Below are positions 2,055 to 45,699 of a DNA stretch of 64,000 nucleotides, in pieces (position 1 is the first letter of the stretch; each line of letters begins with the position of its first letter). Made by a program: the position numbers and the translations under genes. The notes below the pieces were generated by a model. It was given only the letters and a program-made list of their open reading frames with translations. It did no database searches and was not told where the DNA came from. The stretch is from the NCBI RefSeq assembly GCF_054482525.1, contig NZ_CM137006.1. One strand, 5' to 3'.

Positions 2055-2666
2055 GTGATAGGCAGACTCAGAGGCATCATCATTGAAAAACAACCCCCGC
2101 TGGTGTTAATTGAAGTGGGCGGCGTAGGCTATGAAGTGCATATGCCGATGACCTGTTTTTATGAACTCCCTGAAGCGGGTCAGGAAGCGATCGTTTTCAC
2201 CCACTTTGTGGTGCGTGAAGACGCGCAACTGCTGTACGGTTTTAACAATAAACAAGAGCGCACGTTGTTCAAAGAGTTGATCAAAACCAACGGCGTCGGC
2301 CCGAAGTTGGCGCTGGCGATCCTCTCCGGAATGTCAGCGCAGCAGTTCGTTAATGCCGTTGAGCGTGAAGAAGTGGGGGCACTAGTGAAACTGCCGGGTA
2401 TTGGCAAAAAAACCGCCGAACGCTTGATTGTTGAAATGAAAGACCGATTTAAAGGTTTGCATGGCGATCTCTTTACGCCAGCCGCCGACCTGGTACTCAC
2501 ATCACCTGCCAGCCCGGCGACCGACGATGCTGAACAGGAAGCGGTTGCCGCGCTGGTGGCGCTGGGCTATAAACCACAAGAAGCAAGCCGCATGGTGAGC
2601 AAAATCGCTCGCCCTGACGCCAGCAGTGAAACATTAATTCGCGAAGCCCTACGCGCCGCGTTATGA
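2055..2666 (+). CDS. ruvA: Holliday junction branch-migration protein RuvA
   Basis: 203-aa ORF with GTG start; [31 protein letters not shown]… is the RuvA N-terminus. Confidence 0.93.
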
Positions 2667-2671
2667 GGTAA

Positions 2672-3685
<1,014 letters not shown>

Positions 3686-42785: not shown

Positions 42786-43025
42786 TTAACCATTATCGAC
42801 CACAATATTGCTTTTACGTAACAACGGGCAATCTGTTATCCCCAGAAAACCACTTTTAGTGTGCAGGTATTGTACCGTGCTGGTGCCTCTGGCGGTCAGA
42901 TAGGTACATTGCAAACCTAATCCCGCGGCATTCTCTTTGCTTCCAATCAAAACGCCATATCCGCTGAGTAATAATCCTATCCATACCAGTGCTATCAGCA
43001 TAACTGTGCGAATGATGAATCGCAT
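42786..43025 (-). CDS. yobH: Small membrane protein YobH
   Basis: 79-aa ORF MRFIIRTVMLIALVWIGLLLSGYGVLIGSKENAAGLGLQ…. Confidence 0.8.
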   Translation of the reverse strand: MRFIIRTVMLIALVWIGLLLSGYGVLIGSKENAAGLGLQCTYLTARGTSTVQYLHTKSGFLGITDCPLLRKSNIVVDNG

Positions 43026-43183
43026 TACAACCTCTTCTCTTTTTATGTTCGCTTAATCGTAGCGGCAATATGCGCTGAAGCAAGCGACTCATTCTGAAAA
43101 AGCACGAATATCGACATAGTTAGGCGCTGTTTAACTAACGCATGCTAGTTTAATGACATAAGGTAGGTGAAACGGAGATTGGA

Positions 43184-43327
43184 GTGAAAAAGTTTCGATG
43201 GGTCGTTCTGGTTGTCGTGGTGTTGGCTTGCTTGCTGCTTTGGGCGCAGGTATTCAACATGATGTGCGATCAGGATGTACAATTTTTCAGCGGAATTTGT
43301 GCCATTAACCAGTTTATCCCGTGGTGA
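43184..43327 (+). CDS. mgrB: PhoQ-inhibitory small membrane protein MgrB
   Basis: Read directly from DNA (below the 60-aa ORF-track cutoff): GTG at 43184 gives [47 protein letters not shown], 47 aa. Confidence 0.85.
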
Positions 43328-43401
43328 TATCATTTTTTCAGCACTAGATTTTCTTCCTCTCCAGCAGTGGTAGAATAGCGCCTCTACTCAGAGGTGGTGA
43401 A

Positions 43402-43689
43402 ATGAACGAAGTTGTAAATTCAGGCGTGATGAACATTGCGTCTTTGGTTGTATCGGTGGTGGTTCTTCTTATCGGGCTCATCTTGTGGTTTTTTATCAAT
43501 CGTGCCAGTTCACGGACTAACGAACAGATTGAACTGCTTGAGGCGTTGCTGGATCAGCAAAAACGTCAAAATGCACTGTTACGTCGTTTGTGCGAAGCAA
43601 ACGAACCAGAGAAAGCAGATAAAAAGACCGTTGAGAGTCAAAAATCGGTTGAAGACGAAGATATTATTCGTCTGGTCGCCGAACGATAA
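43402..43689 (+). CDS. yebO: Small membrane protein YebO
   Basis: 95-aa ORF MNEVVNSGVMNIASLVVSVVVLLIGLILWFFINRASSRTNEQIELLEALLDQQKRQN…. Confidence 0.82.
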   Translation: MNEVVNSGVMNIASLVVSVVVLLIGLILWFFINRASSRTNEQIELLEALLDQQKRQNALLRRLCEANEPEKADKKTVESQKSVEDEDIIRLVAER

Positions 43690-44358
43690 TCCTTCCTCAA
43701 TCTTGAGTAACCCCGTCGTTGAAGGGTTACTCAATTCATCCTGATTATACGCACTGCCATGGTGCAACTGCTTCAAATTAAAACTCTGGTCTGACTTCAA
43801 ATAATTATCATATTATTTATTTGCGTAACGGGATATCAGAAAAAGATATTTAGCCCATTAATTTATTAGGATGTTTACATCGGATTTATGATTAAGTGTG
43901 GTATTATTTATTAGCGAAACGTTTCTCTCTTGATTTTTTTGCGCATTCATCAATTTTTCTTATTTTAAATTTACAATACCTTTGGCGATTGAGTTCTCTT
44001 TGGGGTGATTGATAGCCGTTAACTGACTGTTTTATGAGAAAAAGTGATATAACTTTTTATTCATTGCATAGCAGAAAATGTGATATTGCACGCACTATGT
44101 AATAACTTCTCCCATTGGCCTGGAACAACTGAACTTATTGAACTATGTTAGAAAATACGTCAGTTTAAGTATCTGCCTGAACTGGCAAGGTTAAGCACAA
44201 TGATATATCGGCGCGTATTCCGTTGCATAAGTGTGCAAAAAAAGTGGAAGACGTATCGAGATTTGTGCGTCTGATCGAGACATGTTTAAAAATGGCTTGC
44301 CATAATTAACGTTGTATGTGATAACAGATTTCGGGTTAAACGAGGTACAGTTCTGTTT

Positions 44359-44502
44359 ATGTGTGGCATTTTCAGTAAAGAAGTCCTGAGTAAACACGTT
44401 GACGTTGAATACCGCTTCTCTGCCGAGCCTTATATTGGTGCCTCATGCAGTAATGTGTCAGTTTTATCTATGTTATGCCTGCGGGCGAAGAAAACAATCT
44501 AA
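44359..44502 (+). CDS. yobF: Small protein YobF (first gene of the yobF-cspC operon)
   Basis: Read directly from DNA: ATG at 44359 gives [47 protein letters not shown], 47 aa; ends 12 bp before cspC. Confidence 0.8.
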
Positions 44503-44514
44503 GGAATTTTTCAA

Positions 44515-44724
44515 ATGGCAAAGATTAAAGGTCAGGTTAAGTGGTTCAACGAGTCTAAAGGTTTTGGCTTCATTACTCCGGCTGATGGCAGCAAAGACGT
44601 GTTCGTACACTTCTCCGCTATCCAGGGTAATGGCTTCAAAACTCTGGCTGAAGGTCAGAACGTTGAGTTCGAAATTCAGGACGGCCAGAAAGGTCCGGCA
44701 GCTGTTAACGTAACAGCTATCTGA
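44515..44724 (+). CDS. cspC: Cold-shock-domain protein CspC
   Basis: 69-aa [72 protein letters not shown]; RNP1/RNP2 motifs. Confidence 0.95.
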
Positions 44725-44770
44725 TCGAATCCACTGATCTGAAGTGTGAATACGCTTCAATCTCGCTATA

Positions 44771-44797
44771 AAGCCTCGCCGAATGCGAGGCTTTTTA
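44771..44797 (+). terminator. Intrinsic terminator downstream of cspC
   Basis: AGCCTCGC-CGAAT-GCGAGGCT hairpin followed by a T5 run. Confidence 0.8.
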
Positions 44798-44889
44798 CTT
44801 TGCTTTATCTTCGCTCCTGGCGTTCGGATATTTGCCCGCCGCGTGATTCGCGTTACACTTGCGGCCTTTAGTATCCTGCCGGAGTTGTC

Positions 44890-45699
44890 ATGTCGTTTTC
44901 CTGTCCACTTTGCCATCAGCCTCTTTCGCGTGAAAAAAACAGCTATATCTGTCCCCAGCGACATCAGTTTGATATGGCGAAAGAAGGGTATGTCAATCTG
45001 CTGCCCGTTCAGCATAAACGGTCTCGTGATCCGGGCGACAGCGCGGAAATGATGCAAGCACGCCGCGCATTCTTAGATGCCGGACATTATCAGCCGCTGC
45101 GTGATGCAATTGTCGCCCAACTGCGGGAACGGCTTGATGAAAAGGCCACGGCGGTGCTGGATATTGGCTGTGGTGAAGGGTATTACACACACGCATTTGC
45201 CGATGCGCTGCCCGAAATCACCACGTTTGGCCTGGATGTCTCGAAGGTAGCGATAAAAGCGGCGGCGAAACGCTATCCGCAGGTCACTTTTTGTGTTGCT
45301 TCCAGCCACCGTTTGCCGTTTTCCGATACCAGTATGGACGCCATAATACGTATTTACGCGCCGTGTAAAGCAGAAGAATTAGCGCGAGTAGTGAAGCCTG
45401 GCGGTTGGGTCATTACTGCCACGCCGGGACCGCGACATTTGATGGAGCTGAAGGGGCTGATTTACAATGAAGTACATCTTCATGCACCTCATGCAGAACA
45501 ACTGGAAGGTTTTACATTACAGCAGAGTGATGAGTTGTGTTATCCGATGCGTCTTCGCGGTGACGAAGCCGTCGCATTATTGCAGATGACGCCGTTTGCC
45601 TGGCGTGCGAAGTCAGAAGTCTGGCAAACACTGGCAGCAAAAGAAGTGTTCGACTGCCAGACGGACTTTAATATTCACCTCTGGCAGCGTTCTTATTAA
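44890..45699 (+). CDS. rlmA: 23S rRNA m1G745 methyltransferase RlmA
   Basis: 269-aa ORF with N-terminal zinc-finger cysteines (CPLCHQ…CPQRH) and SAM-binding motif LDIGCGEG. Confidence 0.9.

Follow-up and report, generated by a model that had tools for sequence, protein, structure and literature searches.

The 669-bp spacer between yebO and yobF is most probably (about 85%) a composite noncoding control region of yobF-cspC that conceals no gene and is built from a terminator, AT-rich filler, upstream sites, and two promoters, distal P2 and proximal P1. In this arrangement, a leaky hairpin terminator ends the mgrB-yebO transcript and is followed by ~170 bp of fast-evolving, AT-rich filler; the next ~215 bp would act as upstream regulatory DNA, with islands resembling transcription factor sites, in a spacer that H-NS binds in vitro; the distal promoter P2, with a sigma-S-type -10, makes a 202-nt leader; and the proximal sigma-70 promoter P1, with an extended -10 and an upstream A-tract, makes a 26-nt leader with a ribosome-binding site near which OxyS pairs. 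The evidence comprises two mapped transcription start sites (TSSs), a mapped 3' end at the terminator, binding in vitro by H-NS and by the RpoD, RpoS, and RpoN holoenzymes, and the conservation and spacing of elements in the spacer. This is an ordinary region, most of which had been described before, its promoters having been mapped earlier. In coordinates of the window (the whole 64,000-nucleotide stretch of DNA that was analyzed), the genes and elements are as follows:

43184 to 43327, plus strand: mgrB.
43402 to 43689, plus strand: yebO.
43690 to 43738, plus strand: yebO 3' untranslated region (UTR) and terminator hairpin, from folding and a Term-seq 3' end.
43739 to 43904, no strand: AT-rich DNA (GC 0.32) with no recognizable content; fast-evolving, single-copy, and unannotated.
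43913 to 43928, no strand: island A, AGCGAAACGTTTCTCT, a CG-centered palindrome of the LacI-family operator type.
43944 to 43967, no strand: island A2, CATTCATCAATTTTTCTTATTTTA, from the alignment.
44050 to 44090, no strand: island B, conservation 0.55 to 0.66.
44120 to 44155: island C, which is promoter P2.
44121 to 44157, plus strand: P2, with -35 TGGAAC (44121 to 44126), a 17-bp spacer, -10 TATGTT (44144 to 44149), and TSS 44157.
44157 to 44358, plus strand: the 202-nt P2 leader, its first ~62 nt variable and its last 98 nt, which contain P1, 80 to 100% conserved.
44223 to 44238, plus strand: island D, TTGCATAAGTGTGCAA (consensus CGCATAAnTGTGCAG), with a sense-strand RNA 3' end at 44234 inside it.
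44261 to 44296, no strand: near-invariant block, TTTGTGCGnCnGATCGAGACA followed by GTTTAAAAATGG, at -72 to -37 of P1.
44297 to 44333, plus strand: P1, with -35 TTGCCA (44297 to 44302), a 17-bp spacer, TGt plus -10 GATAAC (44320 to 44325), and TSS 44333.
44334 to 44358, plus strand: P1 leader with Shine-Dalgarno sequence GAGG (44342 to 44345), invariant in 40 genomes.
44359 to 44502, plus strand: yobF.
44515 to 44724, plus strand: cspC.
From 44890, plus strand: rlmA.

The window is E. coli DNA. Positions 43300 to 44800 are 100% identical to E. coli strain PCN033, and at least 80% of the length of this stretch is held by 5,415 of 5,426 complete E. coli genomes. The window runs in reverse orientation relative to K-12, and published positions were converted as window = 44359 + (1907591 - K-12 v3 coordinate), with v2 coordinates equal to v3 minus 1976. 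The spacer (43690 to 44358) has the same 669-bp length in K-12 MG1655 (1907592 to 1908260); RefSeq annotates no feature in it in either K-12 or PCN033, and no annotated feature lies under the spacer match in any listed E. coli genome. Its GC content of 0.353, versus 0.502 for the window, is the lowest of all 669-bp stretches in the 64 kb; 0.24% of 669-bp windows are equally low, every one of them overlapping this spacer, and the 200-bp minimum is 0.27 at 43800 to 43999. Homopolymers include T7 at 43934 and A7 at 44237, along with five 5-base runs. The 50 kb of K-12 around the locus contains 51 intergenic gaps, of which the spacer is the largest; the second measures 428 bp, and the median is 79 bp. 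The original prediction had described an AT-rich gap of about 670 bp with homopolymer runs, no gene, and a length unusual for an E. coli spacer, and all of this is borne out (GC 35% versus 50%). The upstream 382 bp of the spacer is single-copy and present in 5,421 of the 5,426 complete genomes; it is core DNA rather than a recent insertion.

Published start sites place two promoters in the spacer, in agreement with the earlier proposal that it carries the yobF-cspC promoter, for which TSS data had been named as a check. Kim et al. (2012) mapped yobF TSSs at v2 1905641 (249 reads, 26-nt UTR) and at v2 1905817 (107 reads, 202-nt UTR), corresponding to window positions 44333 (P1) and 44157 (P2), respectively. 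Using SMRT-Cappable-seq, Yan et al. (2018) recorded a full-length yobF-cspC unit extending from 1907617 (window 44333) to 1907153. P1 and P2 are identical to yobFp1 and yobFp2 of EcoCyc and RegulonDB (Kim 2012; Yan 2018), with the TSSs at 44333 and 44157 matching base for base, and a 2026 paper names yobFp1, yobFp2, and cspCp8 as sigma-70 promoters. The opposite picture, which the original prediction had named as its refutation (one promoter near yobF and an interval that is mostly untranscribed), is about half correct. A consensus promoter and terminator scan returned counts at chance and missed the exact hexamers of both P1 and P2, as well as the yebO hairpin. A yobF promoter-YFP fusion gave no activity in low-Mg medium, indicating that promoter use is condition-dependent.

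P1 has the sigma-70-type layout, with an upstream TG that gives it an extended -10. The best yobF promoter of Shimada et al. (2014), TTGCCA-17-GATAAC, sits at 44297 to 44302 and 44320 to 44325, correctly spaced for the TSS at 44333. An RpoN-holoenzyme SELEX peak lies at ~44322, at P1, and the RpoN-holoenzyme evidence is for repression of the operon. Immediately upstream, the columns of the block at 44261 to 44296 are invariant or nearly so in 40 genomes, with blastn identities of 85 to 94% in all genera, and an invariant GATC occupies 44273 to 44276. Its sequence probably includes a putative activator site together with an UP-like A-tract, and the center of the block, near -60 from the P1 start, is at a typical activator position. 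Downstream, pairing of OxyS near the yobF Shine-Dalgarno sequence has been published, and yobF mRNA has been reported as a target of CyaR.

P2 likewise has a sigma-70-type layout (hexamers 16 to 18 bp apart, with a mapped start downstream), and its start was predicted near 44156 to 44157 from cross-species conservation alone, before the published TSS at 44157 was found; the P2 upstream sequence of Kim et al. (2012) differs from the window by one base. The motif, CTGGACGAA..GAGCTATGGTA, is located 238 to 242 and 218 to 222 bp ahead of the ATG across genera, most of which have the form TGGACG-17-TATGGT; in the Kosakonia/Phytobacter group the -10 is at 210 bp, one helical turn shorter. A C at -13 is present and widely conserved (GCTATGGTA), an RpoS-holoenzyme SELEX peak at ~44206 is nearer to P2, and on an in vitro transcription array, the probe set that spans precisely this spacer, of which the strand ("-f") is ambiguous, has a sigma-S/sigma-70 ratio of 2.44. 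Sequence and low-resolution in vitro binding together suggest that P2 may be preferentially used by sigma-S in stationary phase. In Salmonella 4/74, the annotated TSS is far upstream, and Tn5 insertions 172 to 181 nt downstream of it remain within the 5' UTR; this strain thus uses an equivalent long leader.

The protein binding reported for the spacer as a whole places it in a known category. For the RpoD holoenzyme, Shimada et al. (2014) described peaks numbering "more than two" that lie "within 670 bp spacer," and they marked the spacer as bound by H-NS in vitro, and they name it as an example of the type-B spacers, a class that includes the 847-bp spacer of cydA. The two share considerable length, a co-directional arrangement, several holoenzyme peaks, and H-NS binding, although cydA, unlike the yobF spacer, has five promoters and regulators that have been characterized.

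At the upstream end of the spacer is the terminator of the preceding transcript. The hairpin has 11-bp arms (43703 to 43713 and 43724 to 43734) and a 10-nt loop, with a folding energy of -15.5 kcal/mol (z = -3.66) that none of 200 shuffled sequences equaled. Term-seq (Adams et al. 2021) identified a "primary" yebO 3' end at K-12 1908212/3 (window 43738/43737) in three of three conditions, and the mgrB-yebO transcript 3' end (43738) is thus located 4 nt past the hairpin. The tail reads UUCAUCC (TTCATCC in the DNA), with no clear U-tract, and the consensus terminator scan made no call at this site. SMRT-Cappable-seq (Yan et al. 2018) recorded an mgrB-yebO unit and also a read-through unit, yebO-yobF-cspC, from the yebO TSS; the terminator is therefore leaky.

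The spacer had been thought most plausibly to carry, along with the promoter, a long structured 5' leader typical of cold-shock-family genes. This idea is partly supported, being right in kind and wrong in extent. P2 does generate a 202-nt leader, but this takes up 202 of the 669 bp, the final 30% of the spacer, and so fails to account for a spacer of this length; P1, which has more reads, leaves only 26 nt. Nor is the leader detectably structured, as judged by RNAalifold, shuffled controls, and Rfam. RNAalifold applied to the leaders of 40 species finds no compensatory pairs (covariation term, -0.09), as the 24 predicted pairs either do not vary or vary in just one of their two bases, and the E. 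coli leader folds with z = -0.94 relative to shuffles.

We also considered a stronger version, in which a thermosensor-type structured leader spans most of the spacer and provides posttranscriptional control of yobF-cspC. The existence of the 202-nt leader, which is the annotated form in Salmonella, is consistent with this, as is the reportedly posttranscriptional heat induction of YobF, and the variable 5' part (~62 nt) is slightly more stable than its shuffles (mean z, -0.63; below -2 in 6 of 40 species), although this is a weak shift among species that are not independent. The last 98 nt are extremely conserved, but they coincide with P1, and their conservation is explained at the DNA level. 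The confinement of the leader to 30% of the spacer, the short leader made by the promoter with more reads, and the lack of compensatory change or excess stability all argue against a spacer-long sensor. An Rfam scan of 43000 to 45000 (E <= 1) has nothing in the spacer proper, and shows a subthreshold match near the cspC terminator. The cspA-thermoregulator model (RF01766) does match 44339 to 44799, scoring 137.6 bits (gathering score, 78) and overlapping the last 20 bp of the spacer, but most of the match comes from the cspC coding part, the yobF part has little posterior support, and the model does not reach into the spacer proper. The cspA mRNA leader is similar in belonging to the cold-shock family and in being a long leader upstream of a csp gene; here, however, the match is outside the spacer, the yobF ORF itself takes the place of a cspC "leader," and neither a cold box nor a conserved structure was found in the spacer. 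We therefore regard a thermosensor-type leader of this extent as unlikely, and favor a composite control region in which the leader is one part.

A second question is whether the leader is the source of a small RNA, which the original prediction had left as a possibility. Among the 3' ends reported by Term-seq (Adams et al. 2021) is one on the sense strand, classed as "orphan," that maps to K-12 1907716 (window 44234); of three conditions it appears in one, probably LB at an OD of 2.0, with a high read score (264,852). The supplement lists no other 3' end on either strand at 1907600 to 1908199. This end is retained in the 5'-UTR list of that study, which by its rule implies an upstream TSS. 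Together with P2, it suggests a ~78-nt leader fragment (44157 to 44234) in one growth condition, which is a weak hint and the sole one of a small RNA in the region. Such a fragment could be a stationary-phase, trans-acting RNA similar to the 5' UTR-derived sponge RNAs, with P2 supplying the required TSS and the high-scoring 3' end falling inside the strongly conserved island D. It resembles the 5' UTR-derived fragments of the Term-seq study in its position within a 5' UTR, 125 nt upstream of the ORF, but differs from them in being putative, with no terminator, a body that is not conserved, and detection in one condition only. Position 44234 is followed by an A-run rather than a U-run, the 78 nt are no more stable than their shuffled versions (z = +0.25), conservation within the leader is lowest in this body, which also has no covariation, there is no Rfam match, and the end is missing from the other two conditions; it could simply arise from decay of the long leader or from pausing within it. 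The small RNA possibility has thus gained one condition-specific 3' end, while terminator, fold, covariation, and Rfam match are all absent, and we consider a trans-acting RNA here quite unlikely. An independent small RNA gene was rejected, as the region has a promoter (P2) and one 3' end, but no terminator, stability excess, or covariation.

The possibility of an unannotated small protein fares worse. There are ten ORFs of 20 to 38 codons on the two strands of the spacer, but among Escherichia nine of them are broken by a missing start or by added stops. The tenth, an antisense 22-codon ORF (44160 to 44228), is intact in four Escherichia lineages, where its peptides are only about half identical between lineages; in other genera, the ORF from the same ATG ranges from 2 to >50 codons with no common sequence, so that neither peptide nor length is conserved beyond the genus. 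This ATG simply belongs to the conserved island D motif. As no ORF is conserved, even within Escherichia, a hidden small protein gene is extremely improbable.

The conservation analysis across Enterobacteriaceae, which had been suggested as a check on the region, reveals discrete islands with positions locked to the yobF ATG. In a conservation profile of 29 genomes and the corresponding alignment, islands A, A2, B, C, and D stand out from a spacer that is just 75 to 79% identical in its entirety within the genus. The first ~210 bp are poorly conserved, with column identity to the E. coli base of 0.12 to 0.40 over 43739 to 43904 in the 29 genomes, and the final 98 bp before the ATG are at 80 to 100%. 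In the upstream regulatory segment from 43905 to 44120 (~215 bp), short islands are kept across the family, at a nearly fixed distance to yobF.

At the position of the fast-evolving stretch, other genera carry a gene. Using a YebO protein alignment, we collected 80 loci, one genome per species, across Enterobacteriaceae, and found that the yebO-to-yobF distance is bimodal. The short class (~590 to 745 bp) includes Escherichia, Salmonella, Citrobacter, Klebsiella, Raoultella, the E. cloacae complex, Trabulsiella, and others, and the long class (~1510 to 1580 bp) includes Lelliottia, Leclercia, Kosakonia, Phytobacter, Cedecea, Buttiauxella, and several Enterobacter. The long class has a 331-amino-acid ORF that begins ~17 bp past yebO and codes for an MBL-fold hydrolase (Pfam Lactamase_B_2, E = 8e-42); this gene directly follows yebO in 32 of the 80 loci (~40%), and 515 to 545 bp still separate it from yobF.

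These loci raise the question of whether the E. coli spacer is a scar, either of a decayed, lost gene or of horizontally acquired, H-NS-silenced DNA, with no function beyond its promoters. The hydrolase gene is found precisely at the position of the least conserved ~170 bp of the E. coli spacer, the spacer has the lowest GC content in the window, and its binding by H-NS in vitro has been reported. However, a tblastn search with two hydrolase orthologues (word size 2) detected no remnant in the E. coli spacer, the best match having E = 0.14 with scattered hits on both strands, and we rejected the spacer as a hydrolase pseudogene or remnant. With regard to silenced DNA, low GC and H-NS binding are present, but a horizontal origin is contradicted by the core status of the spacer (5,421 of 5,426 genomes) and by its family-wide islands. 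Moreover, the hydrolase-bearing genomes keep their 515 to 545 bp with an identical set of islands, which argues that most of the length of the spacer is conserved regulatory DNA and not a scar. This reading of the whole spacer is accordingly rather improbable, and it could apply to 43739 to 43904 at most. We infer instead that the control region is long because its upstream architecture has been maintained, together with the absence of the neighboring hydrolase gene from this lineage.

The islands upstream of P2 offer some indication of what this architecture might do. The core of island A, CGAAACGTTT, is present in most of 77 genomes, 393 to 479 bp ahead of the ATG. It is most similar to the RbsR operator of rbsD, confirmed in K-12 as TCAGCGAAACGTTTCGCTGA, with which the window sequence TTAGCGAAACGTTTCTCTCT agrees at 16 of 20 positions and has 13 contiguous bases, AGCGAAACGTTTC, in common; the variant in most other genera, TCGAAACGTTTT, is the reverse complement of the second, upstream rbsD site in K-12. 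The right half-site of island A is imperfect in comparison with the rbsD operator, and the island sits ~240 bp ahead of P2 and ~415 bp ahead of P1, an unusual place for a simple repressor. Its 11-mer is not rarer than chance within the 64 kb, and the core would suit other LacI-family proteins too. In Salmonella, rbsR and cspC were both recovered in one screen for fast growth on succinate, and the authors of that screen attribute the RbsR effect to RpoS and rbsD mRNA. Island A2, which is TGTCATnAAAnTTTCATTATTTTGGTGCA in most genera, starts 43 to 47 bp (mostly 45) past island A; Escherichia has lost its GGTGCA end, as well as an inverted repeat, TGCCTT-N5-GAGGCA, that other genera have between the two islands.

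Islands B and D appear to be related. In most genera, island B is the palindrome GTGCAT-N4-ATGCAC, with its center near -93 relative to the P2 TSS; the E. coli version is degenerate (TTCATTGCATAGCAG), and instances are found 291 to 307 bp ahead of the ATG, with a few weak matches at 312 to 318. Island D starts 133 to 136 nt ahead of the ATG in nearly all genomes bearing the motif, and leader positions G69 to A81 are at least 90% conserved within it. The two share the core GCATAACTrTGCA (GCATAACT(A/G)TGCA) and are 157 to 171 bp apart, flanking P2, an arrangement that would suit a single dimeric factor and a loop; the B/D motif, like that of A, is at chance frequency within the 64-kb window. NsrR, CytR, NtrC, DnaA, CRP, and IscR sites were considered for islands B and D, and none was seen to fit. 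The upstream region of the paralogue cspE has nothing in common with the spacer beyond 7-mer chance matches.

Islands A, B, and D and the block ahead of P1 are putative protein-binding sites, although their conservation could have another cause, such as a role at the RNA level for D, which is within the P2 leader. We can imagine that the upstream half of the spacer is a family-wide, fixed-spacing cis-regulatory scaffold, in which an RbsR-type operator at A is combined with palindromes at B and D (GCAT-N4-(A/G)TGC) that loop around P2; their separation of 157 to 171 bp amounts to ~15 to 16 helical turns and could form a repression loop. Should RbsR bind island A, CspC levels would respond directly to ribose sensing, and rbsR and cspC, the pair recovered together in the Salmonella screen, would be connected. 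This proposal is speculative and, taken as a whole, unlikely to be correct. We found no earlier description in the literature of the family-wide, fixed-position islands or of the RbsR-like site, and offer them as leads rather than findings.

Control of this operon is of interest because CspC is a global RNA chaperone. Its loss has been linked to faster growth of Salmonella on succinate, to weaker activation of the PhoP virulence program, and to a fitness gain in aging E. coli colonies, in which yobF-cspC is the main mutational hotspot. The gap between yebO and yobF needs no new gene annotation. The conserved, fixed-position sites, including the RbsR-like operator, are concrete targets for finding regulators of yobF-cspC and constitute a modest new lead.

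Several 3' ends lie inside yebO (window 43402-43689; K-12 1908368-1908502) in the Term-seq supplement of Adams et al. (2021), which also places a Rho-termination region at K-12 1908371, and a reporter of the yebO 5' UTR plus ORF was constructed in the same paper. Together, the internal 3' ends, the Rho-termination region and the published reporter raise the possibility that yebO itself undergoes premature termination. What follows yebO differs among relatives. A gene coding for a 331-aa MBL-fold hydrolase (Pfam Lactamase_B_2) is situated ~17 bp 3' of yebO in 32 of the 80 Enterobacteriaceae loci (~40%; one genome per species), these being the two retrieved loci listed here and 30 further loci:

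MBL-fold hydrolase gene after yebO in two retrieved loci
L010, 3308-4303: MBL-fold hydrolase gene
L060, 3302-4297: MBL-fold hydrolase gene

Because it is only ~17 bp from yebO, the hydrolase gene is probably co-transcribed with mgrB-yebO. It is wholly absent, without remnant, from the sampled loci of Escherichia, Salmonella, Citrobacter and Klebsiella.

Locus tag RS09915 is missing from the PCN033 series between yebO and yobF, and this gap suggests that a gene once called in the spacer of that strain was later withdrawn. The gene at window 44515-44724, which RefSeq (PGAP) labels cspE in PCN033 and the other listed genomes, is cspC by position and 100% identity. The spacer of E. coli O121 strain 201805972 carries an inserted IS1 element (L086, the sequence retrieved from this strain, 2638-3400; equivalent to window ~43875), with yoaB-yoaA directly after it; the stretch that runs from the spacer as far as yoaC is therefore deleted or inverted in this strain. 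Adaptive IS insertions in yobF-cspC have been reported by a published colony-ageing study.

An invariant GATC (Dam methylation site) at window 44273-44276 is shared by all 40 aligned genomes; it sits in a conserved block, ~57-60 bp upstream of the start site of P1, the proximal yobF promoter. Where yobH begins, 5' of mgrB, GCATAACTGTGCG (window 42998-43010) matches 12 of 13 bases of the island D motif (one mismatch); by chance, such extra matches are expected at a mean of 0.9 per window, i.e., one.

The Rfam cspA-thermoregulator model spans the whole yobF-cspC transcript (window 44339-44799; 137.6 bits vs. a gathering score of 78), with the yobF ORF aligned, at low posterior support, to the cspA 5' UTR part of the model. 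In yobF codons 1-37 (window 44359-44469), first, second and third positions are equally conserved over 77 genomes (0.914, 0.931 and 0.927), whereas yebO, taken for comparison, has a normal coding pattern (0.80, 0.93 and 0.59). Judged by this equal conservation, yobF seems to be under nucleotide-level constraint on top of protein coding, for example through a role as the cspC leader, as an internal promoter or as the target of a small RNA.
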